DNA from: an uncultured cyanobacterium
Lineage (GTDB): Bacteria > Cyanobacteriota > Cyanobacteriia > Phormidesmidales > Phormidesmidaceae
Assembly: GCA_963793265.1 (NCBI GenBank)
Contig: CAWBZI010000004.1
Coordinates: 544,001 to 608,000, forward strand
DNA length: 64,000 nt
Direction of reading: 5' to 3'
Shown here: piece after piece, positions 13,238 through 63,084 of the stretch
Layout: the number at the start of each line of letters is the position of its first letter
Position numbering within the stretch: position 1 is the stretch's first letter
Position numbers and translations under genes: made by a program
Notes under the pieces: generated by a model
Told to the model about the DNA's origin: nothing
What the model saw: only the letters and a program-made list of their open reading frames with translations
Databases searched by the model: none

Positions 13238-14167
13238 TTAACCAATCAGCTCGGCCACCGCACCTTGCGTATCTATCTGGAGGCAGTGGGCGCGCGCTGC
13301 AAACTTTTGTGGCGTCCAAGCAGCTTCCATGGCTTCGCGCACTAGCTCAGCAACATCAGCAGAGCAAAGGGCGAGTAGAGTTGGGCCTGAGCCGCTGATC
13401 ACCAGGCCCCATGCTCCGGCTTTGAGGGCGGCGCGGCGAACGTTTTCGTAGCCGGGGATGAGTTTTTTGCGGTAGGGCTGATGGATGCGATCGCCCATCC
13501 CTCCACCAATCCAATCTCCGTTTCCCGTCGCAATTCCCCGCAGCAGCAAAGCAATATGCGCCGTATTAAAGATCGTATCGGCCCGGCTATAGTGCGCAGG
13601 CAGCACCCGCCGAGCATCGGCTGTAGACACCTCAAAATCAGGAATAATCACCACGGGCACCACCGACTCATGCCAGGGCAAATCGCACACTTGCAGCCGT
13701 CCTTTAGTGATCGCTGCTAGCTGAGCCCCGCCTAGCAGCGCAGGCACCACATTATCAGGATGGCCCTCTATTTCATTGGCTAAGGCCACCAAAACTGATT
13801 TATTCAGTGGCGAACCTGCCAGCGCATTTGCGCCCATAATGCCGCCAACAATGGCAGTTGATGAGCTACCTAAACCGCGTGAAAGCGGTACGCCTAACAC
13901 AATCCGAATATGAACAGGAGGCGCTGGCTGACCGATGCGCTCGTAGCACTTTAGATAGGCTCGATAGACCAGATTGCTTGCGCCGCTGTTGACCCGGCTC
14001 GACTCAATGCCTTCGATGGTGATCTGAAACGGTTCACTGTCAGAAAGGGGCGTGAAGGGCGTGAAGTGAAAGCGATTGTAGAGCGTGAACGCGGCCCCGA
14101 GGCAGTCAAACCCAGGGCCGATGTTGGCAGTCGTCGCAGGAACAGTAACGGTGACGGAAGAGGGCAC
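13238..14167 (-). CDS. thrB: Homoserine kinase
   Basis: VPATTANIGPGFDCLG, PLSRGLGSS, EGHPDN, ISGSGPT; GTG start. Confidence 0.96.
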   Translation of the reverse strand: MPSSVTVTVPATTANIGPGFDCLGAAFTLYNRFHFTPFTPLSDSEPFQITIEGIESSRVNSGASNLVYRAYLKCYERIGQPAPPVHIRIVLGVPLSRGLGSSSTAIVGGIMGANALAGSPLNKSVLVALANEIEGHPDNVVPALLGGAQLAAITKGRLQVCDLPWHESVVPVVIIPDFEVSTADARRVLPAHYSRADTIFNTAHIALLLRGIATGNGDWIGGGMGDRIHQPYRKKLIPGYENVRRAALKAGAWGLVISGSGPTLLALCSADVAELVREAMEAAWTPQKFAARAHCLQIDTQGAVAELIG

Positions 14168-19862: not shown

Positions 19863-21566
19863 ATGGTCAATACTATCGCAGCGGGGCATACAGCCCAAGC
19901 CTCAACTCGCAGGCCCGTTCCTTTATCGCTGAGCGATCGCGCCAAAGAAACTAACAACCAAGAGTTTGTACTAGCGGCGATAGACATTGGCACGAACTCG
20001 GTGCATATGGTGATAGCCAGCATTGATGCGGCTCTGCCTTCGTTTAATGTCATTGGCAAAGAGAAAGACACCGTTCGCTTAGGTGAGTTCTGTGAGGGAA
20101 CCGGGGCTTTAAGCGAAGAAGCGATGAGCCGCTGTATTGCCTCGCTCAAGCGGTGTGTAAAGGTTGCAGATAGGTTTAATGCGGACGATGTAGTTGCAGT
20201 TGCGACAAGTGCCGTGAGAGAAGCGGTTAACGGTCAAGACTTTATCGATCGCGTCAAGGCAGAAACGGGCCTTTCTATTAATTTAATTTCAGGAACAGAG
20301 GAAGCTCGGCGGATTTATCTGGGCGTGATTTCGGGCATGGAGCTAAAGAGCAAACCCCATGCGGTGATAGACATTGGCGGGGGCTCTACCGAAATTATTT
20401 TGGGGAGCGGTGGGCCGCCTGACTTCTTGAGCAGCAGTAAGGTAGGAGCCGTTCGCCTCAGCGCTAAGTTTGTTTCTACCGACCCGCTCAGCCGCAAAGA
20501 GTACGAATATTTGCAGGCTTATGTTCGTGGCGTCTTAGAGCCGAATATAGACCAGCTCAAAAGAAAGCTACAGAAGCGAATTCGCCATTCCGATGTAGCT
20601 GATGAGTCGCTCAGGCTAATTGGTACTTCTGGTTCTATTGAGTGTTTGGCTATTTTGTCTGCGATGGAGAAGACGGGTATCGAGCCTGATCCAATTAACG
20701 GATTTTTGCTGACCTATCGAGAACTTGCTTGGTGGGTGCGTCGTTTGCGCAAAATGGATTATTCTGAGCGGTTGGCGCTACCTGGAATGTCTGATCGGCG
20801 GGCGGAAATTATTGTGCCTGGCGCTATTATTTTGCAGACGGCAATGGAGCTGCTGGGCGTCGATCAGCTCAAAATTTGCGAACGCGCACTCAGAGAAGGC
20901 GTTGTTGTTGATTGGATGCTCACTCACGGTTTGATTGAAGATCGGATGGAGTTTCAAGATTCGGTACGCGACAGATCGGTAAGGAAGCTGGCTCGTAAAT
21001 ATAAGGCAGATGGCGATCGCGTGGCTCAATTTGCCACGTCACTGTTTGACCAAACTCAAGACGGTGTGCACAAACTGGGTTCGCTTGAAAGAGAATATCT
21101 GTGGGCCGCTGCTATGCTACACAACAGCGGTCATTACATTAGCCATTCGGCCCATCACAAGCACTCTTACTACCTCATTCGCAATGGCGGTTTGTTAGGG
21201 TTTACCGAAACAGAAGTCGAGATTATTGCAAATATTGCTCGCTACCATCGCAAGAGCTTGCCTAAGCGGCGACATGAGGGCTATAACAATTTGCCGACAA
21301 AGCATGACCGGCAGGTGGTTGATCAGCTTGGGGCGATATTGCGAGTAGCGGTGGCTTTGGATCGAGGGAGGAGTGGGGCGATCGCGAACCTTGAAACCCA
21401 TCACGATCGGAGTGCAGGTGCGATCACGATAACCATCACACCCGTTCGTGCCGACAACAACTGTGAATTAGAGCTGTGGAACATTAACTATAAAAAAGAG
21501 TGGTTTGAAGAAGTTTTTGGACTTAAGCTCAAGGCCCAGCTAGCATCGCATAGCTCTCATGATTAA
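19863..21566 (+). CDS. ppx: Exopolyphosphatase (Ppx/GppA family)
   Basis: AAIDIGTNS, ATSAVREA, DIGGGSTE, ALREG, C-terminal HD-like region (LHNSGH...HHKHS). Confidence 0.95.
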   Translation: MVNTIAAGHTAQASTRRPVPLSLSDRAKETNNQEFVLAAIDIGTNSVHMVIASIDAALPSFNVIGKEKDTVRLGEFCEGTGALSEEAMSRCIASLKRCVKVADRFNADDVVAVATSAVREAVNGQDFIDRVKAETGLSINLISGTEEARRIYLGVISGMELKSKPHAVIDIGGGSTEIILGSGGPPDFLSSSKVGAVRLSAKFVSTDPLSRKEYEYLQAYVRGVLEPNIDQLKRKLQKRIRHSDVADESLRLIGTSGSIECLAILSAMEKTGIEPDPINGFLLTYRELAWWVRRLRKMDYSERLALPGMSDRRAEIIVPGAIILQTAMELLGVDQLKICERALREGVVVDWMLTHGLIEDRMEFQDSVRDRSVRKLARKYKADGDRVAQFATSLFDQTQDGVHKLGSLEREYLWAAAMLHNSGHYISHSAHHKHSYYLIRNGGLLGFTETEVEIIANIARYHRKSLPKRRHEGYNNLPTKHDRQVVDQLGAILRVAVALDRGRSGAIANLETHHDRSAGAITITITPVRADNNCELELWNINYKKEWFEEVFGLKLKAQLASHSSHD

Positions 21567-22100: not shown

Positions 22101-22823
22101 ATGAATTGGAATGCCACTTGCTACCAAGACCAGTACAGCTACGTTTGGGAAAATGGAGAAAGCCTGTTGGCTCAGCTTAAGCCTCAGCCGGGCGAGCATA
22201 TTCTAGATTTGGGCTGTGGTACAGGGCAGCTAGCGCAGCAGATTGCGAAAAGTGGTGCAGAGGTGATTGGGATAGATAGCGATCGCGCCATGATCACCCA
22301 AGCGCAAGCCAACTACCCGCACATCACCTTCCAGGTCGCTGACGCTGCCGACTTCCATCTCCAAAGCCCAGTAGATGCCGTGTTTTCAAATGCTGCACTT
22401 CACTGGGTCACTCAAGCAGAAGCCGCTGCCGCCTGTATTGCTGAGTCTCTTAAACCCGGCGGACGCTTTGTTGCAGAGTTAGGTGGTAAAGGCAATGTGC
22501 AAACGATCATTACCGCATTAGAAAAAGTGACCGGCAAGACTGATCTCAACCCTTGGTACTTTCCCGGCTTAGGCGAGTATGTAAGACTGTTGGAGCAATC
22601 GGGACTAGAAGTTGTGTATGCGAATTTATTTGATAGGCCAACGCCGCTGAAAGCCGGTGTAGGTGGATGGTTAGAGATGTTTAGTCAACGCTTTTTTGCC
22701 GATCTTTCTAGCGAAGAATGGACGGCGATTGTAAGGGCAGTAGAAATAGAAGCTAGCGAACTGTATAAAGAGGGTACATGGGTCGCTGACTACAGACGGC
22801 TGAGAGTATTAGCCGTGAGATAA
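22101..22823 (+). CDS. Class I SAM-dependent methyltransferase (trans-aconitate MTase-like)
   Basis: ILDLGCGTG, DAVFSNAALHW, LKPGGRFVAE, ADYRRLR. Confidence 0.9.
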   Translation: MNWNATCYQDQYSYVWENGESLLAQLKPQPGEHILDLGCGTGQLAQQIAKSGAEVIGIDSDRAMITQAQANYPHITFQVADAADFHLQSPVDAVFSNAALHWVTQAEAAAACIAESLKPGGRFVAELGGKGNVQTIITALEKVTGKTDLNPWYFPGLGEYVRLLEQSGLEVVYANLFDRPTPLKAGVGGWLEMFSQRFFADLSSEEWTAIVRAVEIEASELYKEGTWVADYRRLRVLAVR

Positions 22824-24919: not shown

Positions 24920-26101
24920 ATGCTCTATCGCCGCTTTGGTCGCACTGAACTGCAAATGCCTGTGTTTTCTTGCGGAGGAATGCGCTATCAGCACTCATGG
25001 CAAGACGTTGACCCTCAAGACATTCCTCGCAAAAATCAGGAAAATTTAGAGGCGACGATTCACCGATCTTTAGAACTCGGTATCAATCATATTGAAACGG
25101 CCAGAGGCTACGGAACCTCTGAAATTCAGCTCGGTAAGGTGCTGCCGACGTTCGATCGCGACAAGCTCATCATTCAAACCAAAGTCTCGCCTAAAGCTAA
25201 TCCCAAAGACTTTCTCGAAACCGTAGAACAATCTCTTTCCAACCTCAACGTAGACTATATCGATCTGCTAGGCTTCCACGGCATTAACAACGAAAAGACG
25301 CTAGAGAATACCGTCCGACCGGGCGGCTGCATGGAAGTAGCTAAGCAGTTGCAGGCGCAGGGCAAAGTTCGCCATTTAGGATTTTCTACCCACGGGCCTA
25401 CCCAGATTATTGTCGATGCGATCGCAACTAATCTCTTCGACTATGTAAACGTCCACTGGTACTACATTTTTCAAGACAACTGGCGCGCCATTGAAGCGGC
25501 GACCGAGCGCGATATGGGTGTCTTTATTATCAGCCCTTCAGACAAAGGCGGTCATTTGTATGCGCCACCGCAACGGCTGGTTGAGCTGTGCAAGCCCTTG
25601 AGTCCGATGGTGTTTAACGATTTGTTTTGTCTGAGCTATCCTCAAGTGCATACGCTGAGCTTAGGCGCATCGCAGCCTTCTGATTTTGATGAGCATTTGA
25701 AAGTGCTGCCGCTGGTTGATCAGGCTGACGAAGTGCTCGCACCGATTTTGGAGCGATTGGAGGAAAGGGCGATCTCAACTTTGGGTGAAAACTGGTATCG
25801 CACCTGGCAAAAGGGACTGCCCGATATTCAAGCCACCCCAGGAAACGTCAATATCGCGATCGCCCTCTGGCTTGGCAACCTGGCCGAAGCGTTTGACATG
25901 ACCGAATACGCTCAGGCCCGCTACAACCTACTCGGCGGTGCAAGCCACTGGTTCCCCGGCAACCGCGCCGATAACCTCAGCAGTCTGGATCTCACTGAAA
26001 GCCTGCGCAACAGTCCTCACGCCACCGAAATTCCTCAGCGCCTCGCGAAGATCCATGAGATGCTAGGCGGCAAAGCAGTCAAGCGCCTATCACAGCAGTA
26101 A
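24920..26101 (+). CDS. Aldo/keto reductase family protein
   Basis: YRRFGRTEL, GINHIETARGYGTSE, QTK, YIDLLGFH, LGFSTHG. Confidence 0.92.
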   Translation: MLYRRFGRTELQMPVFSCGGMRYQHSWQDVDPQDIPRKNQENLEATIHRSLELGINHIETARGYGTSEIQLGKVLPTFDRDKLIIQTKVSPKANPKDFLETVEQSLSNLNVDYIDLLGFHGINNEKTLENTVRPGGCMEVAKQLQAQGKVRHLGFSTHGPTQIIVDAIATNLFDYVNVHWYYIFQDNWRAIEAATERDMGVFIISPSDKGGHLYAPPQRLVELCKPLSPMVFNDLFCLSYPQVHTLSLGASQPSDFDEHLKVLPLVDQADEVLAPILERLEERAISTLGENWYRTWQKGLPDIQATPGNVNIAIALWLGNLAEAFDMTEYAQARYNLLGGASHWFPGNRADNLSSLDLTESLRNSPHATEIPQRLAKIHEMLGGKAVKRLSQQ

Positions 26102-26122
26102 CCTCTCCCCACACATCCTCTC

Positions 26123-26947
26123 ATGGTTGCCCACGCCGCAAAATATCAGGGCCAAGCTGCCCTTTTGTCCAAAGAGCTACTCGCCTACTACCGTGAAGTT
26201 AGCCGCTCACCGCTCACCGTCGTAGACCTTGAAACCACCGGCTCGCTCGGTCATAACGCTCGTGCTATCGAAGTCTCTATCATCCACGCCAGCCTCGCAG
26301 ATGGCATCGAGCACCAGCGCACTCACCTGATCAATCCAAAGGTCAAGATTCCTGAGTTCATTACCAAAATCACTGGCATCACCCCGGAGATGGTGTATCC
26401 GTCGCCACCGCCTGAAGAAATTTGGCCGCTGTGTTTAGATGATTTGCAGGGGGGCGATCGCACGTTCACCGCCCACAACATAGATTTCGACTACGCCTTT
26501 GTCCGCTCCGAATACAAGCGCCTCGGCGTCCGCTTCTACAAGCCGCCTATGCAAAAGCTCTGTACCGTCATCCTCTCTAGAATGCTGCTGGCCGATCTGC
26601 CCTCCCGCAGACTCCCCGATCTCGTTAAACATTTCAACTTCGATATCAGCACCTCCCACCGCGCTGAAGCCGACACCAGGGCTTGCTGGCTACTGGCTGA
26701 ACTGCTGCTCACTCAAGTTCAAAACGAAGACGACGATACCTTAATCAAGCGCTTTGGGCAGCAGTGGATTCGACTGCGAGATGCGGCTAAAATCTTGAAC
26801 TGCCGTAAAGAAGAGGCTCAGATTAAGCTGGATGCGGCTCAAGTGGAAAGCCGCCTTTCGTTCAAGGGCAAGACACCTATGTATCGTCGCTGGGGTGTGG
26901 AGCAGTTTTACTATGAACATCAAGGACAGCAAATGTCACTTCTTTAG
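26123..26947 (+). CDS. DEDDh (DnaQ-like) 3'-5' exonuclease with C-terminal extension
   Basis: VVDLETTG, AHNIDFD, HRAEAD motifs. Confidence 0.9.
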   Translation: MVAHAAKYQGQAALLSKELLAYYREVSRSPLTVVDLETTGSLGHNARAIEVSIIHASLADGIEHQRTHLINPKVKIPEFITKITGITPEMVYPSPPPEEIWPLCLDDLQGGDRTFTAHNIDFDYAFVRSEYKRLGVRFYKPPMQKLCTVILSRMLLADLPSRRLPDLVKHFNFDISTSHRAEADTRACWLLAELLLTQVQNEDDDTLIKRFGQQWIRLRDAAKILNCRKEEAQIKLDAAQVESRLSFKGKTPMYRRWGVEQFYYEHQGQQMSLL

Positions 26948-27016
26948 ACCGCTCTTTGACTTATCTGCGATCGCCATTAACTGATAAGCTGTTACCAAAT
27001 TAGTCTATATGTACTA

Positions 27017-35495: not shown

Positions 35496-36962
35496 TTGAA
35501 GCTTACTCCAAAGCAGAAAGCACAGCTCAACCGGCCAAGGCCCTTCTTATTTCTAATCATCATAGGTATCTTTAGCTTGCCGTGGCTGTTGCTGTTTCGT
35601 AACGGCGTAAAGTCTCGTCAGCAGCAGTCAGAAATGGCGGTTCGTTCGGACACCTTTTTTGCTCAGGTTGACACCTACCAGCGCAATGCTGCCGCTGAAC
35701 AGTTCGACAGACTCGGGGCCGATTTGGGATTTGCGCCCAACGATCCCCGCAATCTTGTATTCCGAATAGATCTTGAGGCAGAAGCAGACTACAGATCTAT
35801 CGAGCGTTCTTTGGATAGCTTTCTCAAAAAGCAAGCGGCTAAGCCATCTGGCCCTTTAGATCCCCTCCCACCCGCGCTCTCTCGTTATCTTGCCAGCAGC
35901 CAGCCTAAGCTCACAGCGATTCGGGCTCACCTGTTACAGAGTCCATCGCCTCAGTGGGAGATAGACATCGAGCAGATGTCGGCGCAAAACTATCCTTTTG
36001 CGGGGCTGGTGAACACAGCCAATACTCAAAAGCTCTTGTTGCTCTCTGCCATTGACTATCAGGCGCGCAACCAGCCAGACCAAATGCTAATGGCGCTCGA
36101 AGCCTCCTGGCAGCTAAATCAAGCCATTACCCAGCGCCCTGATCTGGTATCTCAAATCTCTGCTTCAGTGATCTCTAGCTATCAGGCAGGCATCTTAAGG
36201 CATCTTGATAATATTTCGGTGCAGTGGCAAAGCCGCCTGAATCAACAGGCCCAGCAGCAGTCTGTTATTCACGGCCTTGAGTTCGACGTTTGGCTTCAGT
36301 ACACCGTGCTTAGCAAGCTTCTATTGCCGGTCATAGAAGGCACGGCCAGCAGCTCGCCCAATCCTTCTCATACTCAGGGCTCACTGCTTTCAACTAAGCC
36401 CTTTGGCCAGCTACCTAACAAGCTACCCAAGAGGCTTTCATACTGGTTTTCTCCTGTTCACTACTTCAACCTCACTAATATTGACACTGCTCAAACCGCG
36501 CACAGAGCGCTCAGCCTGCTGCAAGATCTCGATGTGTGCTCAACGACTCAGCAGCAGGCCGAAGCGATATTGATGAAGGAGCAAACAGCGCGGTGGAATG
36601 AAGCCGTTGCTCCGGTGCCAGCCGTGCTAGCAAAGCGATGGAAGGTGATGGGCGATCGCGCACTCGCCTTAGAACTCACCCAAAAAGTGTTGCAGGCAAA
36701 ACAGTTCTTGCAAGCAGCCGAACAGGGGCCAGAAGAACGGCCAGAAGAACGGCCAGAAGAACGGCCAGAAGAAGGGTCAGAGGAATGGCTGGAATGGCCA
36801 AAGCGTTTGCCTGAACTCACCTCTGAGGTTTGTCCAGAAGAGTCTTGGATCTATGAGCGCACCTCAGATAATGCGATCGCCCTTTCTCTAAGCACTCAAC
36901 TGATCCCCGAACCCACTATCCCGCTCCACTACAAGTTCGATCCAAAGAAAAACTCTGAATAA
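35496..36962 (+). CDS. Hypothetical membrane-anchored protein
   Basis: 488-aa TTG-start ORF; N-terminal TM; EERP tandem repeat (12-bp unit) near 36729-36775. Confidence 0.75.
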   Translation: MKLTPKQKAQLNRPRPFLFLIIIGIFSLPWLLLFRNGVKSRQQQSEMAVRSDTFFAQVDTYQRNAAAEQFDRLGADLGFAPNDPRNLVFRIDLEAEADYRSIERSLDSFLKKQAAKPSGPLDPLPPALSRYLASSQPKLTAIRAHLLQSPSPQWEIDIEQMSAQNYPFAGLVNTANTQKLLLLSAIDYQARNQPDQMLMALEASWQLNQAITQRPDLVSQISASVISSYQAGILRHLDNISVQWQSRLNQQAQQQSVIHGLEFDVWLQYTVLSKLLLPVIEGTASSSPNPSHTQGSLLSTKPFGQLPNKLPKRLSYWFSPVHYFNLTNIDTAQTAHRALSLLQDLDVCSTTQQQAEAILMKEQTARWNEAVAPVPAVLAKRWKVMGDRALALELTQKVLQAKQFLQAAEQGPEERPEERPEERPEEGSEEWLEWPKRLPELTSEVCPEESWIYERTSDNAIALSLSTQLIPEPTIPLHYKFDPKKNSE

Positions 36963-38883: not shown

Positions 38884-39744
38884 ATGACTTCCTCTCGACG
38901 CTACATCCTTACCCTCTCCTGTCCTGATCGCGTTGGTGTAGTAGCAGCGGTCAGCTCGCTAATAGCGGCTAACGGTGGCTGGATTAGTGAGGCGCAGCAC
39001 CATTCAGAGCGGTCGGGTCAGCGGTTCTTTATGCGTCAGGAGATTTTGACAGACTCTCTTCCTTTTGATTTGAAAGAGCTGCGACGGCGGTTTTCTCCTA
39101 TTGCCGAGCAGTTTGATATGGACTGGGCTATCCGCGATTCTGCGCAAAAGAAACGAGTGGCAATATTAGTGTCTAAGAGCGGTCATTGTCTGTACGATCT
39201 CCTTTCTCGGTGGCGTGCTCAGGAGCTAGAGATAGAGATTGCCTGTGTGATCTCTAATCACAATTTATTCCGAGGCTTGGTCGAGTGGCACGACATTCCT
39301 TACTTTTGTGTTCCGGTGACGCCAGATACTAAGGTGGCGGCTTACAAAAAGGTTGTTAGTCACTTTGAGGAAGTGCGAGGGGATGTGATGGTACTGGCGC
39401 GATATATGCAGATTTTGTCTAAAGAGGTGTGCGATCGCTACCCAGGTCAAATTATTAACATTCACCATTCCTTCCTCCCTTCTTTTATTGGTGCTAAACC
39501 TTACCATCAGGCTTACGAACGCGGCGTAAAGCTGATTGGAGCCACCTGCCACTATGTCACTCAAGATCTCGACTGCGGCCCAATCATCGACCAAGACGTG
39601 CTGCGTATCGATCATTCTGACTCTCCAGAAGACTTGGTTCGCTTTGGTAAAGACATTGAGAAAACAGTTTTAGCCAGAGGGTTGCGCTATCACATTGAGG
39701 ATCGGGTGCTGCTGCACGAGCACAAAACGATTGTGTTTCGCTAG
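38884..39744 (+). CDS. purU: Formyltetrahydrofolate deformylase
   Basis: N-terminal ACT domain (CPDRVGVVA), LARYMQILS, INIHHSFLP, GVKLIGATCHYVT, LDCGPII. Confidence 0.97.
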   Translation: MTSSRRYILTLSCPDRVGVVAAVSSLIAANGGWISEAQHHSERSGQRFFMRQEILTDSLPFDLKELRRRFSPIAEQFDMDWAIRDSAQKKRVAILVSKSGHCLYDLLSRWRAQELEIEIACVISNHNLFRGLVEWHDIPYFCVPVTPDTKVAAYKKVVSHFEEVRGDVMVLARYMQILSKEVCDRYPGQIINIHHSFLPSFIGAKPYHQAYERGVKLIGATCHYVTQDLDCGPIIDQDVLRIDHSDSPEDLVRFGKDIEKTVLARGLRYHIEDRVLLHEHKTIVFR

Positions 39745-45787: not shown

Positions 45788-46990
45788 TTAGAGGGTGTTT
45801 ACCGTAAGGCATTTGCCAAGTTCGCTGATTAATTGATCGATGTGCGCATGGGTATGCGTTGCCATTACGCTCATTCTCAACCGACTAATCGGTACGGTGG
45901 GCGGACGGACGGCAGAGATAAAAATGCCTTTGCCAGTGAGCTGTTGAGATAGGTGTAAAACGGTCGCCGCGTCTTTGACCTGTAAGCAGACGATGGCTGA
46001 ATCGGTGGGCAGGCGTTTGAGGTGGACACTTGCAGCCTCGGGGAGGTTGCTGATGCGCTGATCGAGCTGTTGCGTGAGATATCGGACGTTTTGGTGAAGC
46101 TGCAAGAGGCGGTCGGGCTCTTGTTTGAGGCAGGCGATCGCACTCAAAGCGGCCCCCGTATCAGCCGGAGAAAGACCTGTTGTATAAATCCAACTTGGCG
46201 CTCTGTTTCGCAAAAAATCAATCAGCTCAGCGCTACCTGCAACATAGCCGCCCAGGCTTGCAAACGCCTTGCTGAGCGTGCCCATCTGTACCATCTGCTG
46301 GTGCTGAATACCAAAGTGTTCCACGCACCCTGCGCCCGTTTTGCCCAGTACGCCTGCGCTGTGGGCCTCATCGATCATCACCATCGCCTCGAACTTTTCA
46401 CCTAGGCGCAAGATTTCTGGCAGCTTACAAACATCGCCATCCATGCCAAACACGCCATCGGTAAGAATCAAACAGCGGCGATAGGCAGATCGGTGTTGGC
46501 TGAGCTGTTCGGTGAGTTCAGATAATGAGCTATGGCGATAAGTGAGTAGGGTTGCGCCGCTAAGGGTTGCGCCGTTTTTGAGGCTGGCGTGGTTGTATTC
46601 GTCCGAGAAGATGAGATCGCGATCGCCCACCAGCGCAGTAATCGTGCCGATATTAGCCAGGTAGCCGCTGCTAAAAACAAGGGCGTCTGCGGTGCCTTTG
46701 AGCTGTGCGATCGCCTGTTCTAATTCTCGATGCAAAGGGCGATGGCCGCTGAGCAATCGTGAGCCGGTTGCGCTGGTGCCGCAAGTTTGGGTGGCAGCGA
46801 TCGCGCCCTCAATTAGTCTCGTATCTCCCGCGAATCCTAAATAATCATTGCTGGCAAAGTTCACCATCTGACGATCATTCATCGTCACCACCGGGCCACT
46901 GATTCCGGCTATAGGCTGCACCTGTCGGTACCAGTTAGCCTTATGGATGGTGCTAAGAGATTTGCTAATCCAACGATAGGGATCTGACAC
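45788..46990 (-). CDS. bioF: 8-amino-7-oxononanoate synthase
   Basis: FASNDYLG, GSRLLSG, NHASL, DEAH, GTLSKA, RPPTVP. Confidence 0.95.
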   Translation of the reverse strand: MSDPYRWISKSLSTIHKANWYRQVQPIAGISGPVVTMNDRQMVNFASNDYLGFAGDTRLIEGAIAATQTCGTSATGSRLLSGHRPLHRELEQAIAQLKGTADALVFSSGYLANIGTITALVGDRDLIFSDEYNHASLKNGATLSGATLLTYRHSSLSELTEQLSQHRSAYRRCLILTDGVFGMDGDVCKLPEILRLGEKFEAMVMIDEAHSAGVLGKTGAGCVEHFGIQHQQMVQMGTLSKAFASLGGYVAGSAELIDFLRNRAPSWIYTTGLSPADTGAALSAIACLKQEPDRLLQLHQNVRYLTQQLDQRISNLPEAASVHLKRLPTDSAIVCLQVKDAATVLHLSQQLTGKGIFISAVRPPTVPISRLRMSVMATHTHAHIDQLISELGKCLTVNTL

Positions 46991-50844: not shown

Positions 50845-51175
50845 AGGGGAGCAGAGCCTTTGAGGGCAAAACCTAACGTTGATGAGCGTGATATATAACG
50901 GAGATGCTAAGGGATGCACGCAGTTCGATACGATCCGTAGAAGTACCGAACTAAGCTAAAAATTTGTCATTCCTTTACAACCGTATGGTTCCCTTCATCT
51001 CTAGTTTGCCCAACGGTATAAGAACCAGTCAGTTCAAGATCTGTCTACCTGCCCTTGTCTGCCTTTTGTAGAGGTGGGGCAACAGAGCAGCCGAGATCTT
51101 GATATATTGCTTGCGGTGGTCGTTTTTACGCCTGCATCTATTCCTGTTTTATTGGATCTATTCGGAGCATTTCTT

Positions 51176-52330
51176 TTGCATCAGCTTTATCGGTTTGGCC
51201 TTCGCCCGCTTTTGTTCAACCTGCTCAAAGCTGATCCTGAAACGGCGCATCGCCAAACTATCGATCTGCTGGCTTGGTTAGCTACACATCCAACCGCAGG
51301 CTCACTGTTCCACCAGCCCACTCGGCTCGCTACGCAGTCTGCCTTATCTGGCCTGTGCAGTGTGCGCGATCGCCGCCTCAACCAGTCACTTTGGAATCTC
51401 TCATTCGACAATCCTTTTGGCCTCGCTGCTGGATTTGACAAAGATGGCTCGGCAGCTCGAGCCTGGCCTCTACTAGGCTTTGGCTTTGCTGAGCTAGGCA
51501 CCGTGACCTATCACGCCCAGCCCGGAAATGCTCAGCCTAGAATGTTTCGCCTGCCGCGTGACAGAGCCGCGCTAAACCGGATGGGTTTCAACAATCAGGG
51601 CGCAGCGGCACTCTCTCGAACGCTGAAGACGCTGTGGCCGGAAGATAACTACCCTGTGCCGATTGGTATTAATTTAGGTAAGTCGAAGATTACACCTTTA
51701 GAGGAAGCGGCTGAGGACTATCGCAAGAGTTTTGAGCTGTTGAGAAAGCAGGGAAGTTATTTTGTGGTGAATGTGTCTTCGCCTAATACGCCGGGGTTGC
51801 GATCGCTCCAAGCCAAAGAACAGCTCGCCCCCATCCTCGAAACCCTCCAAACCGCCAACATAGACAACAGACCTTTGCTGGTTAAAATCTCCCCAGATCT
51901 GGCCACCGAAGACATCTACGAGATTGTAGAACTCGCCCAGGCGTGCAAACTCGCAGGTATTATCGCCACCAACACCACTATCAGCCGCGATGCTTTAACA
52001 ACTAAAACTATTGCAGCTACCGGAAAACTTGTCTCAGCAGAACCGGGCGGCATCAGCGGCGCACCTGTCACCCAGCGTTCTACAGAAGTTATTCGCTTAA
52101 TCTACGAGCACACCCAAGGCACACTGCCGATAATTGGCGTTGGTGGCATTTTTACGGCTGATGACGCTTGGGCCAAAATTACAGCGGGCGCGTCTTTGCT
52201 GCAAACCTATACTGGCTGGGTATATGAAGGGCCAGCTATGGTGAAAGCGATACTCAGCGGTCTGCTAAAGCGTTTAGACGAACATGGCTTAGAAAGCATT
52301 ACAGACGCTATCGGAAAAGATCTTTATTGA
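51176..52330 (+). CDS. pyrD: Quinone-dependent dihydroorotate dehydrogenase
   Basis: DPETAH, GLAAGFDK, NRMGFNN, NVSSPNTPGLR, KISPD, GGISG. Start probably TTG 51176 after GGAG (ORF open from 51074). Confidence 0.96.
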   Translation: MHQLYRFGLRPLLFNLLKADPETAHRQTIDLLAWLATHPTAGSLFHQPTRLATQSALSGLCSVRDRRLNQSLWNLSFDNPFGLAAGFDKDGSAARAWPLLGFGFAELGTVTYHAQPGNAQPRMFRLPRDRAALNRMGFNNQGAAALSRTLKTLWPEDNYPVPIGINLGKSKITPLEEAAEDYRKSFELLRKQGSYFVVNVSSPNTPGLRSLQAKEQLAPILETLQTANIDNRPLLVKISPDLATEDIYEIVELAQACKLAGIIATNTTISRDALTTKTIAATGKLVSAEPGGISGAPVTQRSTEVIRLIYEHTQGTLPIIGVGGIFTADDAWAKITAGASLLQTYTGWVYEGPAMVKAILSGLLKRLDEHGLESITDAIGKDLY

Positions 52331-53243: not shown

Positions 53244-55604
53244 TTAAGGGCGCTTAACGTAGGTGTTTAGCCACTGCACCATTTCCCAAAGGACATGGCC
53301 AACTGCTTCTCGGGAGCGGTAGCCGTGTTCTTCGTATGGCAAGCTGACGTAGCGAACAGTGCCGCCTAAACCTTTGATGGCTTCGTAGAGGCGATCGCTC
53401 TGAATCGGAAACGTCCCACTGTTGTTATCTTCTGCACCATGAATCAATAGCAGCGGCTGGTTGATCTTGTCGGCGCAGGTAAAAGGAGACATTTTCATAT
53501 AAGTGTCGGTAGCATCCCAGAAATTGCGCTGTTCGCCCTGGAAGCCGAAGGGCGTGAGGCTGCGATTGTAGGCACCGCTACGAGCAATCCCAGCGGCAAA
53601 CAGATCGGTGTGGGCCAGTAGGTTGGCGGTGGTGAATGCGCCGTAGGAATGGCCGCCGATGGCGAGGCGATCGCGCTCACTCACTCCTCTTTCTACCAAG
53701 TAGTCCACCGCCGCCTGCGCGCTAGAAACTAACTGTTCTAAATAAGTGTCATTCGGCTCCGTATCACCTTCTCCCACAATCGGCATCGTTGGCCCTGAAA
53801 GCAAGGCGTACCCCTGCGTTAACAAAAACATCACAGAAGAACCGCTAGGTCTGCCAAAAGTATCTTCTGCGCGGGTCACCTGACTGGCCGTATCGCGGCT
53901 TTTGTGCTCTTCGGGATAGACCCACAGCAGGGTTGGCAGCGGGCCGTCTTTTTCAAGATCGTGGTCGGGGGGTAAATAAAGGGTGCCTGAAAGCTCTAAC
54001 CCATCGGTGCGCGTGTAGCGAACAATCTCTTTGTGAATATTTTCGTACCAGGGCAGCGGATCGGTGAAGTGCGTGAGCGCGGTTTCTGCTTTATCGGCTC
54101 TATCGTATAGCCAGTAGTTGCTGGGCTCGGTTTTACTTTCTCGTACGACGATGAGCTGTTTAGCCTGCGGGTCTAGCACTCTTCTCACCCGAGCAAAGCC
54201 ATCTTCTCCTGATTGCCAAAGTCTTTCTTTTTCACCCGTTTCAAGATTAAACCGATCTAAAAAGGGATAGATACCGCCGTCTGAAGCACCACGACCGTTC
54301 AAGTAAATGTCGCCCTCTGCTGACATTTGCAACACGTGCCAGGCATACTTTCCTCGTACGGTCATGGGCTCGCCTGGATTACTGTAGGCGTCTTGAAAGT
54401 TGCGCTCTTCTAACAGCTTTGGCGGCGTGTTTTCATCAGGAGAAATTTTCCAGGTACGGAGCTGACGAGTGCTGTATAGGGCTTCGTAGGCGATCGCAAC
54501 TGCCCCATTCCCCCAATCTAATGTATTAAACCGCAGCTCAGTCTTCCATAGCTCGCTCGGAGAGTCAGTGAAAGGAGCCGGTAAGGTGTGTAGGCGATCG
54601 CGATACTCACTTTCCTGATCAGCATCTCCCCCGTCCAAAGCCTCCACCCAATATAGGGTTGCAGGCTGATCGGCTCGCCAGCCTGACATCCGTCGCCCGT
54701 CTCTTACAGAATCAAAGTTAATTGAAATCTCTTCTGCTAGAGGCAAATCTGCCAGCGTATAAACAGAGTCTCCTTTGAGATTGAGGATTTCGGTGCGCTT
54801 AGGAAAGCGAGAGAGCGGCACCTGATACGAAAAGGGGCGGTGGGTTTTGATGACTTTAATCCACTGACCATCAGGAGACGGGGCGACGCCTGTGAACAGT
54901 TCGGCGCTCGTAACCGGCGTTTTCTCACCGTCTAGAGAAATCTGTACGAGCTGCGAGCTAAAGTAGTACTCCAGCAGCGCCTCATCGTGAGGACTGGCAA
55001 GCAAATTTGTATAGGTACGCGCAGGTGCTACGCGGCCTAAGTTCTCTTCGATGATCGGGCCGACTGGGAGCGGCGCTTTTGCAGGCGGGGGGCCACCGTC
55101 GGTTCGCACTTTGCAGAGGATTGTGTTGTCAGGAAGCCAGTAGATAGGACTGCCGCAGGTCGCGTTGATGATGGGGCCGGTAATTGCCTTGGCTTGTCCG
55201 GTTGTGACATCTAGTACCCATAGGCTGATGCCGCTGTCTTCGCCTGAAAGCTGGGTGTGGGTGAAAGAGAGATATTTGCCGCAGTCTGACCAAGCTAAGT
55301 CGCGAACGCGGGCGTCGGTGGGGAGCGCTACCGGGCGGGCTGTTTTTTCTTCGCGGCGACGGACGGCGATCGCACAGTAGTAGCCTGCTTTGGCTGGCCC
55401 CCAGGTTTGCGGGTTTAGCTGAAGTCCTGCGATCGCTACCACAGGTTCTGCTAGCTCCTCAATCGGCGGTAGCTCCATCTGCCCAAATTCAACAATCCAT
55501 TCTGCATCTGGCGAGAGCCCCACGACTGGAAGCTTGGGCGCATCGAGCATAGAGGCAATCGGCTCAGGGGGAGTTTGCCAGGTGTCCTGAGCGGGGAATG
55601 TCAT
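53244..55604 (-). CDS. S9 family peptidase (glutamyl-endopeptidase-like)
   Basis: GGHSYGAF nucleophile, ARSGAYNR, HGAEDNN, EEHGY. Confidence 0.9.
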   Translation of the reverse strand: MTFPAQDTWQTPPEPIASMLDAPKLPVVGLSPDAEWIVEFGQMELPPIEELAEPVVAIAGLQLNPQTWGPAKAGYYCAIAVRRREEKTARPVALPTDARVRDLAWSDCGKYLSFTHTQLSGEDSGISLWVLDVTTGQAKAITGPIINATCGSPIYWLPDNTILCKVRTDGGPPPAKAPLPVGPIIEENLGRVAPARTYTNLLASPHDEALLEYYFSSQLVQISLDGEKTPVTSAELFTGVAPSPDGQWIKVIKTHRPFSYQVPLSRFPKRTEILNLKGDSVYTLADLPLAEEISINFDSVRDGRRMSGWRADQPATLYWVEALDGGDADQESEYRDRLHTLPAPFTDSPSELWKTELRFNTLDWGNGAVAIAYEALYSTRQLRTWKISPDENTPPKLLEERNFQDAYSNPGEPMTVRGKYAWHVLQMSAEGDIYLNGRGASDGGIYPFLDRFNLETGEKERLWQSGEDGFARVRRVLDPQAKQLIVVRESKTEPSNYWLYDRADKAETALTHFTDPLPWYENIHKEIVRYTRTDGLELSGTLYLPPDHDLEKDGPLPTLLWVYPEEHKSRDTASQVTRAEDTFGRPSGSSVMFLLTQGYALLSGPTMPIVGEGDTEPNDTYLEQLVSSAQAAVDYLVERGVSERDRLAIGGHSYGAFTTANLLAHTDLFAAGIARSGAYNRSLTPFGFQGEQRNFWDATDTYMKMSPFTCADKINQPLLLIHGAEDNNSGTFPIQSDRLYEAIKGLGGTVRYVSLPYEEHGYRSREAVGHVLWEMVQWLNTYVKRP

Positions 55605-55648: not shown

Positions 55649-58633
55649 TTAATCGGTAAATTCGTCCATGGACGGGCAGGTGCAGATGAGGTTGCGATCG
55701 CCAAATGCCTGATCGATACGATTCACTGACGGCCAAAACTTGCGATCGCGTGTCCACTCAGTCGGAAACACAGCCGTTTCTCTCGAATAGCCCCGATTCC
55801 ACTCCCCAACCAAATCTGCTGTGGTATGCGGCGCGTGTAGCAAAGGACTTTCTTCAGCCGCAACCTTCTCATCCTCAATCTGTTGCACCTCAGTGCGAAT
55901 CGCAATCATCGCATCGCAGAATCGGTCTAGCTCACATAGCGCCTCACTCTCAGTCGGCTCTACCATAATCGTGCCAGCGACCGGCCAAGACATCGTAGGC
56001 GGATGAAACCCGTAGTCAATCATGCGCTTGGCAATATCATCCACATTCACATGCGCTGTTTTCTTAAACGCTCGCAAGTCCACAATGCACTCATGCGCCA
56101 CTAGGCCGCTAGCACCTTTATAAAGGATGTCGTAATGACCTTCTAGGCGCTTGGCAATGTAGTTTGCGCTCAAAATTGCCAGCTCACTTGCTCGCTTTAG
56201 CCCATCAGCCCCCATCATTTGAATGTACATCCAAGAGATCGGCAAAATGCTGGCGCTACCCCATGGCGCAGCCGAAACCGCTCCAATTGCCTGATCGCCG
56301 CCGGTTGGAATCAGGGCGTGACCCGGCAAGAAGGGAACCAAGTGCGCTGCTACGCCAATGGGGCCAACGCCTGGGCCACCGCCGCCGTGCGGAATGCAGA
56401 AAGTTTTGTGCAAGTTAAGGTGGCAAACGTCCGCGCCAATATCCCCAGGGCTACACAGCCCCACCTGCGCGTTCATATTCGCTCCGTCCATATACACCTG
56501 TCCGCCATGACGATGAACAATCTCGCAAACGGCTTTAATGCTCTCTTCAAACACACCATGCGTAGACGGATAGGTCACCATCAAAGCAGAGAGATTGTCT
56601 TTGTGCTTTTCGGCTTTAGCCTCTAAGTCAGCCACATCAATATTGCCGTCGTCGTCACATTTCACAGCGACGACCTTCATCCCGGCCATCACAGCGCTAG
56701 CGGGGTTAGTACCGTGCGCCGACTGAGGAATTAAACAGATATTGCGGTGGGTGTCGCCGCGAGACTCGTGGTATTGGTGAATGACCAACAGACCTGTGTA
56801 TTCACCCTGAGAACCCGCATTCGGCTGAAGCGAGACGCCTGCAAAGCCGGTGATTTCGCATAGCCAGTCTTCTAGTTCAGTGAAGAGAGTCTGGTAGCCC
56901 TTAGTCTGAGAAAGGGGGGCAAACGGATGGATTTGACCGAACTCAGGCCAGGTAATCGGCACCATTTCAGCCGTTGCATTGAGCTTCATGGTGCAAGAGC
57001 CCAAAGGAATCATCGCATCTGCTAAAGAGAGGTCTTTCTTTTGCAGACTGTAGAGGTAGCGCAGCAGTTCGGTTTCGCTGTGGTACTGATTAAATACGGG
57101 GTGGGTGAGGTAGTCGGAGGTGCGGCTGAAGGCTTTTGGCAGCGGCTCTGGGTTAAGTGTCTCTAGCTTGGGCGCGGTCTTGTCGCCTGCGAAGATCTCT
57201 AACAGCTCAGCAATTTGCTCAATGCCTGTTGTTTCATCTATTGAAATACCCAGCGTTTGAGGCTGGTTAGCATCGGCTGGATCTATACGTAGGTTGATTT
57301 GCCTCTCAGCGGCTCTAGCCACAATATCGGCAGTTTTGTCGCCGGTTATGACTGTGAGCGTATCAAATACCGGCTCTTCGCCTGTCTTATAGCCAAGTTT
57401 GCGCAAACCGTTTTCAAGTGCACTGGTGAGCTTGTTTACTCGAATTGCAATGTCTTTGAGTCCAGTAGGGCCATGATAAACCGCGTAGGTGCTAGCGATA
57501 ATGGCAAGCAGTACTTGAGCGGTGCAGATGTTGCTAGTCGCTGAGTCGCGGCGGATGTGCTGCTCGCGCGTTTGCAGCGCAAGCCTCAGTGCGGGCGCGC
57601 CTTTGGAATCTTTGGAAAGACCGACCAATCGACCCGGCAGCTTGCGAGCGTAGGCTTGTTTGGTGGCAAAGTAAGCCGCGTGAGGGCCACCGTAGCCGAG
57701 CGGTACGCCGAATCGTTGCGTATTGCCGACAGCGATATCTGCGCCGAACTCGCCCGGTGCTTTTAGTAGCGTTAGGCTGAGTAAGTCTGCGGCAACAGTG
57801 ACAATGGCATCAGCTTTGTGTGCACCGGCAATGCAGTCTGTGTAGTCGTAGATCGCGCCATCGGTGGCGGGGTATTGCAGGAGTACGCCGAAGAAGGGGC
57901 CATCGGTAGCAAAGTCGGTGGTGCGATGGTCACCGATGACAACTTCTATGTTGAGGGGGTGCGATCGCGTCTTTATCACATCAATCGTCTGCGGATGACA
58001 CGCCGAAGACACCCAAAACTTTTTGGCTTTCTTCGCCTCTTTGTTCTTACACAGGCCAAAGCTCATGCTCATCGCCTCAGCCGCCGCCGTGCCCTCATCT
58101 AGCAGCGAAGCATTTGCAATCTCTAATCCTGTCAAGTCGCTGACCATTGTCTGATAGTTCAGCAGCGCTTCTAGCCGACCTTGAGAAATTTCAGGCTGAT
58201 AGGGCGTGTACTGCGTGTACCAGCCGGGATTTTCTAGAATATTGCGCTGAATCACAGGGGGCGTCACGCAGCTTGAGTAGCCCAAACCGATATAGCTGCG
58301 GTATACCTGATTTTGAGCGGCAATGCCTGCAATCTTCTTCAGAGCCTCTGTTTCGCTCAAAGCCTTATCTACGGCTAGGGGCTGCTTGAGCCGAATGCCT
58401 GCGGGGACAGCCTGAGCGATTAAATCCTCTACGCTATCGAAGCCGAGCACCTTTAGCATTTGCGCAATGTCTTGATCGGTAGGGCCGAGGTGGCGAGACT
58501 CAAAGCGATCGCGCTTTAGGCTATCTGTCCACAGCGATCGCGCCTTAACTGACGAAGCAACGCCGACCGCTGTATCCGTCGCGGTTGCGTAGGTAGTAGC
58601 CTCAGAAGATGGAGCGGTTTGATCGTATGACAT
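55649..58633 (-). CDS. gcvP: Glycine dehydrogenase (P protein)
   Basis: [47 protein letters not shown]. Confidence 0.98.
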
Positions 58634-60689: not shown

Positions 60690-61487
60690 ATGAGTGATGA
60701 ATCAATGGATAATAAGACGTTTTCAAGCCGTCGCTTAGCAGGAAGCTGGCTCAATACCTTCCAGTGTGTGATGGGCTCTCGGCCTCACAAGCCTAGCTTT
60801 GTTGTGTTTGATATCGGCCAGAGCGGCGGTATGATTTTGGCGAAGTGGTTTTGCGCGCATAGCGGCATTACGTTTCAAGAAGATATTCTGGCTCAGGCGG
60901 TGCGCTTCCCTCGCATGAGCGTATACCAGCACGTGCGCCAAGCTCAAGGCGAGGTGTATGGATTTAATGTGACGGTTGAGCAGCTCAGGCAGGTTCAGCG
61001 AATAGCTAATCCTAATCAGTTTTTGCAGGATTTGCACCGGGGTGGGTGTCGGGTGATTGCGCTGCATCGTCGGGACGCGCTTAGACATGCGATCGCTACT
61101 CTCAAAACCTACAGCGTCAACTGCCGCTTTGACTCAGCCGAGGCTACCCGCTCTAACAAAGTGACAGTAGACGTTAGCGAGCTAATCGCCTGCCTCAAGT
61201 ACTTAGACAACCAGCGCATAGAAGCCAACGCCATTCTGCACGGCGTCTCTCATATCAGCCTCACATACGAAGACGACCTGATGGACATAAACAGCCACGC
61301 TGCCACCGCCGAACGCCTTGGTGACTTCTTAGAGATTCCGCAGATTGAACCTGTCGGAGAACCGTTAAAGCTAGTGCATCAGCAGCTTGCCGATATCGTC
61401 GTTAACTACGACGAAATGCGTCAGGGCCTAGAAAAGTCTGATTATGCCTACCTCCTTACGAATAGTCGCTATTTGCTGACTGTGTAG
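60690..61487 (+). CDS. Sulfotransferase-fold (Stf0-like) protein
   Basis: FVVF...QSGG, VIALHRRDALRHAI, LTYEDDL, L..IVVNYDE pattern. Confidence 0.6.
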   Translation: MSDESMDNKTFSSRRLAGSWLNTFQCVMGSRPHKPSFVVFDIGQSGGMILAKWFCAHSGITFQEDILAQAVRFPRMSVYQHVRQAQGEVYGFNVTVEQLRQVQRIANPNQFLQDLHRGGCRVIALHRRDALRHAIATLKTYSVNCRFDSAEATRSNKVTVDVSELIACLKYLDNQRIEANAILHGVSHISLTYEDDLMDINSHAATAERLGDFLEIPQIEPVGEPLKLVHQQLADIVVNYDEMRQGLEKSDYAYLLTNSRYLLTV

Positions 61488-62396: not shown

Positions 62397-63084
62397 ATGC
62401 ACGTTTTATTTGTAGAAGATGAGCCGAAGATTGCGAGCTTTGTGCAGATTGGGCTGAAGGAGCATGGATTTGTGGTGGACTATTGCGACCATGGCGATCG
62501 CGCCTACGAAAAGGCCACCCTCAACGAATACGATGTCATCCTGCTCGACATTATGATGCCAGGCAAAGACGGCCTGTTTATTCTCAAGCACCTACGTCAG
62601 CTAGGCCACAACACGCCCGTCATTTTACTCACCGCCCGCAACGAGCTAGACGACCGCCTGCAAGGGCTTAATTTAGGGGCAGACGACTACATTGCCAAGC
62701 CATTTTTTCGTTGAGGAATTAGTGGCCAGAATGCAGGCCGTGGTGCGGCGCAGCGTCGGCGAACGGCAGAATTTGGTGACGGTAGGGCCGTTTAAGCTAG
62801 ATCGGATTACGCGGACGGTGACCTGCCATATGGATGATGAGCCGCAGGCGGTAGAGCTGACCACTCGGGAGTTTAACTTGTTGGAGTATTTGATGCGATC
62901 GCCCGGCAGAGTATTCACCCGCACCCAGATGCTAGAGCACGTATGGGGCTACGACTTTAACCCCAGCACCAACGTAGTAGACGTATGCATTCAGCGCCTT
63001 CGCAAAAAAATAGACATTAAAGGCCAAAGCCGCTGGATTGAAAGCGTACGCGGTGTAGGCTATCGCTTCCGCCAGGCAGAATAA
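62397..63084 (+). pseudogene. OmpR-family response regulator, frameshifted at a T6 run
   Basis: REC domain (VEDE, LLDIMMP, LTA, GADDYIAKPF) in one frame and winged helix (LTTREFNLL, VVDVCIQRLRKK, VRGVGY) in the +1 frame; removing one T at 62703-62708 joins them. Confidence 0.85.

Follow-up and report, generated by a model that had tools for sequence, protein, structure and literature searches.

A compositional switch at HIP1 sites

The stretch of DNA analysed here is a 64-kb window of a cyanobacterial genome (G000:C4:544001-608000; the genome, G000, comprises 5.68 Mb in 7 contigs), and its subject is a change in base composition that takes place at the HIP1 palindrome, GCGATCGC. HIP1 occurs 78 times in the window, where 1.6 copies are expected from dinucleotide-preserving shuffles, and 6,888 times in the genome. 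For some three decades this palindrome has been a riddle, being hyper-abundant, conserved and methylated and having no agreed function. Current proposals, which make it a mismatch repair (MMR) signal, an element of chromosome structure, a Chi-like site or an uptake signal, rest on indirect evidence.

The original prediction singled out one HIP1 copy that lies within a pyrD-type gene encoding dihydroorotate dehydrogenase (Table 1). On recounting, 22 of the 24 codons 5′ of this site end in G or T, as had been claimed, and 20 of the 22 codons on the 3′ side end in C or A, the direction being the one predicted and the count one lower than the 21 given. Over the whole open reading frame (ORF), 216 of 419 codons end in G or T. 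All 17 sites named in the prediction have a positive keto (G and T) excess in the left flank and a negative one in the right, although the site placed at 7049 begins at 7050, and the base counts reported for the site at 13487 are exact. Across the window, the keto content of the left flank minus that of the right is positive at 67 of the 78 HIP1 sites, negative at 7 and tied at 4. A sawtooth that was said to run through about 25850-26970, resetting at each HIP1, shows up only in part when the sequence is divided into 50-nt bins, the region as a whole being rich in C and A.

Genome-wide extent and sequence specificity

The effect is expressed below as D, the keto skew of nt 3-60 to the left of a site minus that to the right. 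Over the 6,888 HIP1 sites D has a mean of 0.217 +/- 0.003, with values above zero at 81.3% of sites and below zero at 15.2%. In a metaplot of the + strand, in which the sign change survives the averaging of all sites, GC skew is +0.32 at positions -10 to -1, +0.18 at -20 to -11, +0.10 at -60 to -51 and +0.05 near -110, and the right side is the mirror image of the left. The T-A skew has the same sign and is weaker. The flip is seen in 31 of 31 bins of 200 kb and on all contigs, where it adds onto the regional skew, and no dependence on gene strand or replichore was found in G000. The first 400 kb of contig C4 have the largest regional GC skew of the genome (+0.07 to +0.08); there the left-flank skew at HIP1 is raised (0.10-0.11) and the right-flank skew lowered (0.014-0.024), which indicates that the two asymmetries are additive.

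Control words show no such change. The 84 other palindromic octamers present in at least 60 copies each gave D = -0.007 +/- 0.029, and no flip was seen in G000 at CGATCG outside HIP1 (n = 828, D = -0.004), at GATC with no HIP1 within 150 nt (n = 14,082, D = -0.006), or at CGCG and GGCC. The flip is likewise absent at ACGATCGT, CCGATCGG and TCGATCGA, and seven-of-eight variants altered at position 1 have D values of 0.038, -0.021 and 0.007. The full HIP1 octamer is needed for the flip. Among one-mismatch variants GTGATCGC alone carries it, and does so in both flanks (n = 552, D = 0.173). This word is over-represented and corresponds to HIP1 with a C to T change at the first CpG; we read these sites as probable decayed copies of HIP1 that keep a relic of the flip. 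Another word, ATCGCGAT, which overlaps tandem HIP1, at first sight flips as well (D 0.137, n = 298), and this signal is gone (0.041, n = 100) once sites having HIP1 within 150 nt are set aside.

Several other origins of the skew were considered and rejected. Repeat families do not produce it, as among the 6,887 flanking 30-mers 4 on the left and 2 on the right occur more than once. A hairpin, a cruciform or a REP-like element is not indicated either, since mirrored complementarity at distances of 6-100 nt equals the site-shuffled expectation and offsets of +/-4 give the same result. Nor is there a specific flanking motif: no k-mer exceeds the mononucleotide skew, GA words outrank TC words in the residuals, and the enrichment on the G-rich flank concerns G and GA-type purine words (GGA, GAG, GGGA) and not GT words. 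Separately, extension of the palindrome itself is avoided, Watson-Crick mirrored complementarity at distances of 1-5 nt being 0.242 against 0.270 after site shuffling (about 10 standard deviations).

Table 1. HIP1 sites and associated features of the 64-kb window. Positions are those of the window; L and R give the keto excess over 58 nt to the left and right of the site.
Feature	Position	Strand	Observation
Focal HIP1, GCGATCGC	51799..51806		skew changes sign here
5′ flank of focal HIP1	51725..51798	+	G/T-rich; keto excess +16 in 58 nt
3′ flank of focal HIP1	51807..51871	+	C/A-rich; keto excess -34 in 58 nt
Dihydroorotate dehydrogenase (pyrD-type), host gene of focal HIP1	51074..52330	+	ORF; Pfam DHO_dh PF01180, E 2e-90
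HIP1 with flip	7050..7057		L +22, R -20
HIP1 with flip	9918..9925		L +4, R -8
HIP1 with flip	10382..10389		L +22, R -2
HIP1 with flip	13487..13494		L +24, R -22; 30 nt before 12 G/2 C, 30 nt after 15 C/1 G
HIP1 with flip	21378..21385		L +24, R -14
HIP1 with flip	22279..22286		L +8, R -20
Stretch with HIP1 at 25856, 26454 and 26967	25856..26974		sawtooth partly visible in 50-nt bins
HIP1 with flip	36652..36659		L +8, R -14
HIP1 with flip	39431..39438		L +16, R -4
HIP1 with flip	46134..46141		L +20, R -8
HIP1 with flip	53667..53674		L +20, R -14
HIP1 with flip	54594..54601		L +6, R -12
HIP1 with flip	57961..57968		L +10, R -8
HIP1 with flip	61089..61096		L +18, R -14
HIP1 with flip	62494..62501		L +16, R -14
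HIP1 with flip	62895..62902		L +14, R -6

The skew arises at the level of DNA

Sites were assigned to coding and intergenic classes with our own ORF-based gene map, in which about 86% of the genome is coding. At 11-30 nt from HIP1 the left minus right keto skew is 0.56 at fourfold-degenerate sites and 0.54 at third codon positions, against 0.15 and 0.056 at codon positions 1 and 2 and 0.17 between genes. The signal is therefore kept at fourfold sites, where it is strongest, and GC skew at these sites over the same distance is +0.42 before HIP1 and -0.45 after it. In agreement with the original prediction, synonymous sites are affected, the flip holds in genes of either strand (fourfold keto skew 0.556 for + genes and 0.574 for - genes), and it is symmetric about the palindrome, the upstream and downstream amplitudes being exact mirror images.

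Because HIP1 is palindromic, equality between gene strands cannot exclude an effect exerted on mRNA. The skew continues, however, into neighbouring genes on the opposite strand, where its value at fourfold sites is +0.215 +/- 0.064 at 41-80 nt and +0.130 +/- 0.030 at 81-150 nt, compared with +0.267 and +0.160 at these distances within the HIP1-bearing gene. The process therefore acts on DNA and not on mRNA.

At fourfold sites the skew decays with a main exponential of 76 nt and a long tail (a single-exponential fit gives 118 nt), and it still amounts to +0.07 at 301-400 nt. The outer flanks of close HIP1 pairs have skews of 0.236 +/- 0.016 and 0.212 +/- 0.011, compared with 0.188 +/- 0.002 at isolated sites. 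Intergenic bases near genic HIP1 sites have a skew of 0.08 at 31-60 nt, and fourfold sites near intergenic HIP1 have one of 0.23, the weaker response thus being a property of intergenic DNA itself. When plotted by single offsets from -3 to -40, the skew also shows a period of 3 nt, with low values at -11, -14, -17 and -20, from which it follows that HIP1 lies preferentially in one reading frame relative to codons.

The change is mainly one of G against C

Base frequencies refer to fourfold positions of the strand lying 5′ of HIP1, with 301-400 nt as the far reference. G rises from 0.30 far from HIP1 to 0.43-0.46 near it and C falls from 0.26 to 0.115-0.15, while A moves from 0.216 to about 0.19 and T is approximately flat (0.226 far, 0.20-0.23 near). 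The G+C content increases from 0.557 to 0.58-0.605. Between 301-400 nt and 11-20 nt the G/C ratio shifts about 2.4-fold, and the G/A and T/C ratios about 1.6-1.7-fold. The predicted flip from G/T-rich to C/A-rich DNA is real, but most of it is a matter of G versus C, and T does not rise.

As the purine fraction of the 5′ strand climbs from 0.515 to about 0.625, transitions alone are insufficient and transversions are needed. The chemistry first put forward, C to T and A to G changes in single-stranded DNA, is at variance with these figures, given the flat T, the increase in G+C and a purine rise beyond the reach of transitions. MutS recognises G.T better than A.C mismatches, recognises G.G well and does not recognise C.C at all. 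Under these preferences, the base pattern is the one to be expected from one-sided mismatch correction.

The skew follows HIP1 between related genomes

The closest genome compared, G028, has 76% DNA identity to G000 (76-78%) and flips likewise over 516 sites in 400 kb. The two genomes were compared over 313 kb of reciprocal-best alignments, with D computed here over nt 3-100 (standard error about 0.018). Where both carry HIP1 (n = 244), D is 0.211 in G000 and 0.204 in G028. Where G000 alone carries it (n = 83), D is 0.160 in G000 as against 0.027 at the matching position of G028; where G028 alone carries it (n = 100), the value is 0.123 for G028 and 0.048 for G000. The skew is present where HIP1 is and is strongest at conserved sites, which argues that it follows HIP1 and grows with the age of the site. 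HIP1 is thus better read as the cause than as the consequence of the skew, to judge from these alignments. Fourfold divergence, which could distinguish repair that lowers the rate of change from damage that raises it, is flat with distance from conserved HIP1 sites (K 1.23-1.41), a measure that is uninformative because synonymous sites are near saturation at 76% identity.

The sign of the flip is nearly universal among HIP1-bearing genomes of the class

We extended the analysis to 401 genomes of the class by counting G and C over whole genomes at offset -22 of the 5′ strand. A threshold of at least 400 observations kept 300 genomes and dropped 101 that are HIP1-poor; the count for G000 (4,534 G and 2,875 C) agrees with that of a script of our own. 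G exceeds C in 294 of the 300 genomes, with z > 3 in 245 and z < -3 in none, so that the sign of the flip is near-universal among HIP1-bearing genomes. An equal-composition control palindrome, CGCTAGCG, gave -0.003 +/- 0.011 over 39 genomes of family f1. In 46-120-kb samples of other families the flip had looked lineage-specific, an impression that the whole-genome census overturned: the genomes first taken as flip-less have small, mostly real skews (G016 0.031, G020 0.087, G017 0.012).

The amplitude, by contrast with the sign, varies. Its median is 0.072 and its range -0.045 to 0.288, G000 ranking 4th of 300 with 0.224. It is phylogenetically structured, genera g12, g148 and g1 having 0.26, 0.20 and 0.18, and families f21 and f6 having 0.15-0.18 and 0.001-0.018. 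Its relation to HIP1 density is weak (Spearman -0.14 over the 300 genomes; -0.27, p = 0.13, at the family level).

Candidate machinery

The MutL_C domain is encoded in G000 at C4:331509-331874 and in 350 of the 401 genomes. A skew of zero or below was found in 3 of the 11 census genomes that lack a MutL_C match and in 3 of the 289 that have one (Fisher p = 7e-4). The MutL_C-less genomes that are at least 90% complete have skews of -0.022, -0.045, -0.010 and +0.086, three of the four being at or below zero. We regard the link between MutL_C and the flip as suggestive only. The large subunit of ExoVII was considered as a factor that would make excision bidirectional and was rejected, being present in 20 of 21 genomes with flip and no-flip genomes alike.

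One further genome and one family combine a lack of MutL_C matches with a scarcity of HIP1. Genome G416 (family f1, genus g15; 97% complete) has no MutL_C match and almost no HIP1 (46 G-pattern, 66 C-pattern), and it carries 467 copies of GTGATCGC against 66 of a control, while the rest of genus g15 is HIP1-rich. It looks as if HIP1 has decayed in this genome after loss of MutL. Family f2 has a MutL_C match in 0 of 39 genomes, all of them HIP1-poor, and five of these (G215, G278, G394, G400 and G407) contain hundreds of GTGATCGC copies against fewer than 10 of the control.

Six intact C5-methyltransferase genes were found in G000. HIP1 occurs inside one alone, C4:630912-632336 (L056, 3 HIP1), whose homologues include Xanthomonadaceae enzymes at 58-61% identity and whose nearest named relatives are from Phormidesmis spp. 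and Synechococcus sp. PCC 7335; its product fits the XorII/DmtC group described by Elhai, as far as these similarities indicate. The other five genes (L055, L057, L058, L059 and L061) contain neither HIP1 nor CGATCG and are probably recent acquisitions. The GIY-YIG matches in G000 are confined to a 647-residue UvrC-like frame and a single-domain protein of 98 amino acids (L063:1438-1734, - strand; L063 is contig C7 of G000). The small protein could be a candidate site-specific nuclease and is offered as a lead only.

A polar correction process as the favoured explanation

The footprint is anchored on HIP1 and antisymmetric about it. The explanation we favour, in which our confidence is about evenly balanced, is polar, strand-specific excision or correction from HIP1, most likely dependent on MutS/MutL, with a putative nickase. 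A DNA transaction anchored on HIP1 would proceed away from it along both strands, and the stretch 3′ of HIP1 on either strand would be preferentially excised and recopied 5′ to 3′ from HIP1, typically over tracts of about 80-120 nt with a long tail, and the complementary strand, which lies 5′ of HIP1 on its own reading, would serve as the template and win. The mismatches might stem from replication errors, or from heteroduplex that arises between copies of the chromosome or with transforming DNA, and their repeated one-sided correction would bias the surviving changes over evolutionary time. On the excised 3′ strand C would come to prevail over both T and G, and A over G, so that the complement of this strand would become G-rich and C-poor; the outcome would be a 5′ strand that is G-rich and C-poor with a mirror flank that is C-rich and G-poor. 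As machinery we envisage MutS/MutL-type correction that would be directed from HIP1 by a nicking or entry activity. Such a process would be a directional version of the GmeC-directed repair proposed by Elhai (PMC4390886, Life 2015), and it is compatible with a Chi-like role in recombination.

A HIP1-anchored polar process was also the core of the original prediction, and it remains the best reading, although the deamination chemistry attached to it is not supported. The predicted polarity, with the 3′ strand removed 5′ to 3′ and the 5′ strand kept, gives the right sign under several chemistries. A more far-reaching version, towards which we are tentative and lean somewhat to doubt, is that HIP1 may serve a mismatch-correction or recombination-initiation system that is independent of MutH and strictly polar (5′ to 3′), either as its strand-discrimination signal or as its entry signal. 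Each palindrome would protect or convert only the DNA 3′ of itself on each strand, and the system would in this way have left a G-to-C sawtooth at synonymous positions throughout most cyanobacterial genomes. Were this so, the system would explain why HIP1 is palindromic, dense (about 1 per kb) and conserved, and the range of amplitudes among lineages, about 0-0.29, would give a comparative handle for finding the nuclease.

Several findings weigh against excision or correction from HIP1. No nickase is known: MutH (PF02976) was found in 0 of 21 genomes, with the positive control matched in E. coli, and Vsr (PF03852) in 0 of 21, with the positive control matched in 3 genomes. MutH is also stated to be absent from all cyanobacteria in the consulted text of PMC5101192. 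The association with MutL depends on 3 genomes with low counts, of which two are congeners; G179, which is 99% complete and without a MutL_C match, yet has a skew of +0.086; and family f6 has both MutL_C and ExoVII yet no flip (0.001-0.018), which means that MMR genes are not sufficient. In a five-genome comparison that included G000, a full-length DmtC/XorII-type orthologue was present in the weak-flip genome G016 and was not found in the strong-flip genomes G115 and G061, nor in the no-flip genome G017, so that the presence of this methyltransferase is unsupported as a determinant of amplitude. An excess of GTGATCGC, used as a proxy for methylation because it is the decay product of m5C, shows no correlation with amplitude either (rho 0.06 in 39 genomes of f1 and 0.02 in 17 of genus g1, with 56 of the 401 genomes entered). 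The order A > T predicted for the 5′ strand is absent, T being slightly above A. At equal distance, fourfold sites are 3-5 times more skewed than intergenic DNA, which a purely neutral pressure would not predict unless spacers are strongly constrained or fast-turning. Finally, composition alone cannot separate mutation bias from fixation (conversion) bias, nor tell which strand is the active one.

Other explanations draw on parts of the same evidence. Selection or molecular drive for recombination would have HIP1 act as a two-way Chi-like site, with the G-rich 5′ strand, as a RecA-coated 3′ tail or a transforming strand, pairing better and spreading. It would accommodate the conserved sign (294 of 300 genomes) and the greater effect in coding DNA, which is more conserved and recombines better than intergenic DNA, as well as two reports from the literature, namely that homologous HIP1 sites stimulate recombination in a Chi-like manner during transformation (Kamoku and Nielsen, bioRxiv 10.1101/2024.09.10.611283) and that RecA prefers TGG-type repeats resembling Chi (PMC3763553). 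The reported location of Chi in GT-rich islands would suit it as well. The enriched words, however, are G and GA-type and not GT, without any k-mer beyond the mononucleotide skew; it is difficult to see selection being maintained at thousands of synonymous positions that are each weak on their own; and in PCC 7002 the effect of HIP1 survives deletion of addAB, according to the same preprint. We consider this drive unlikely. A further possibility, to which we attach slightly less weight still, is that the 5′ strand is repeatedly left single-stranded when HIP1 is nicked or broken and the other strand is resected 5′ to 3′, and accumulates C to T and A to G damage. The sign would be right, G/A and T/C both being up about 1.6-1.7-fold on the 5′ strand, the skew decays with distance from HIP1 as it should, and the slightly stronger outer flanks of close HIP1 pairs (0.236 and 0.212 vs 0.188) would fit. 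It is contradicted by fourfold T, which does not go up (0.226 to 0.20-0.22), by the increase in G+C (0.557 to 0.58-0.605), by a purine rise (0.515 to about 0.625) that requires transversions, and by the weak effect on intergenic DNA.

Reversed causality, in which HIP1 arises or persists where a switch from G-rich to C-rich DNA already exists, seems very improbable. The flip-bearing GTGATCGC sites could in principle be precursors of HIP1, but orthologous positions without HIP1 are little skewed (0.027 and 0.048 vs 0.160 and 0.123) and conserved sites are the strongest. Moreover, we know of no process that makes such switches every ~0.8 kb without HIP1. We give scarcely any credence to an effect on mRNA, such as structure or translation around GCGAUCGC, for which the palindrome would make both gene strands alike. 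Such an effect would suit the stronger skew of coding DNA and the identical sense frames of + and - genes, but it is largely refuted by the run of the skew into opposite-strand neighbours; in addition, intergenic skew is present though weaker, the flanks have no positional complementarity, and upstream and downstream sides are exact mirrors.

Comparison with known systems

The nearest precedent for polar correction from HIP1 is the proposal of Elhai that HIP1 and GmeC direct MMR (PMC4390886). In both cases HIP1 and not bare CGATCG acts, MutS/MutL would operate with an unknown MutH analogue, and the working range is about 1 site per kb; G000 also has an XorII/DmtC-type methyltransferase. The consulted text of the proposal is silent on polarity and flanking composition, and in our data amplitude is not tied to the presence of the methyltransferase orthologue, and the genomes searched yielded no nickase. 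The same paper records that S. elongatus is dense in HIP1 without having a CGATCG methyltransferase.

The Dam/MutH system of E. coli resembles the process envisaged here in that a short palindrome marks where the strand that will be removed is nicked, and removal proceeds from there as far as the mismatch. It differs in its MutH, found in none of the 21 genomes searched, and in its signal, GATC outside HIP1 having no flip. Excision in E. coli MMR is bidirectional, so that no polar footprint would be expected from it. Very-short-patch repair by Vsr uses a patch of about ten nucleotides and does not fit a skew that decays over 76-118 nt.

Like Chi and other RecA-preferred sequences, HIP1 has a polar relation to the strand 5′ of the octamer, that strand is G-rich, and HIP1 stimulates recombination when placed in homology arms. 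The footprint is polar and strand-specific, as is the action of Chi; that it originates in recombination is a weaker suggestion. In contrast to Chi, HIP1 is palindromic and acts both ways, its bias is one of G versus C rather than GT-richness, and its effect in PCC 7002 is independent of addAB (bioRxiv 10.1101/2024.09.10.611283). A role for HIP1 as a DNA uptake signal has also been proposed (PMC13756078).

Two other kinds of strand asymmetry bear comparison. Replication-associated GC skew shares with the HIP1 flip a strong excess of G over C, a weak excess of T over A and a maximum at third codon positions, but at HIP1 the sign switches every ~0.8 kb instead of at origin and terminus, reaches ~0.4-0.6 at fourfold sites and is superimposed on the regional skew. 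The bidirectional strand asymmetries of human CpG islands are local, site-centred and antisymmetric and have been attributed to transcription, replication or recombination; as described in the consulted part of PMC2817419, they are eukaryotic, extend over kb to 100 kb, are tied to promoters and involve no iterated octamer. For the enzymology, a parallel might be drawn with the Neisseria Ssn GIY-YIG single-stranded DNA nucleases, which act on NTS repeats, an iterated word, by single-strand cutting and affect natural transformation (PMC11893778). The small single-domain GIY-YIG protein of G000 might, by analogy, be the counterpart. NTS differs in being an oriented hairpin that is mostly intergenic, and the consulted text of that paper mentions neither cyanobacteria nor HIP1.

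The original prediction held the footprint to be undescribed, and our reading of the literature agrees. No description of a flanking skew was found in the key HIP1 papers searched or in full-text searches of the accessible literature on HIP1. The terms 'skew' and 'asymmetr' are absent from the searched text of PMC4390886 and PMC5861425, and 'skew' refers to sampling only in that of PMC13756078 (2026). The strand-skew footprint of HIP1 apparently has not been described before.

Implications and a further observation

A polar, antisymmetric footprint would constitute direct genomic evidence of a directional DNA transaction that starts or stops at HIP1, and it would set the polarity and the range (about 100 nt) of that transaction. 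The same footprint marks the process as ancient, shared by nearly all HIP1-bearing cyanobacteria and of differing strength from lineage to lineage. Local codon usage in these genomes is partly set by the side of HIP1 on which a codon lies and by its distance from it, and measures of codon bias, the detection of horizontal transfer and estimates of synonymous rates are affected as a consequence.

Two further words are scarce in the genome. GGATCC has 112 copies and GGGATCCC has 4 in 5.68 Mb, far fewer than words of the same composition, and this scarcity looks like avoidance of a restriction target.

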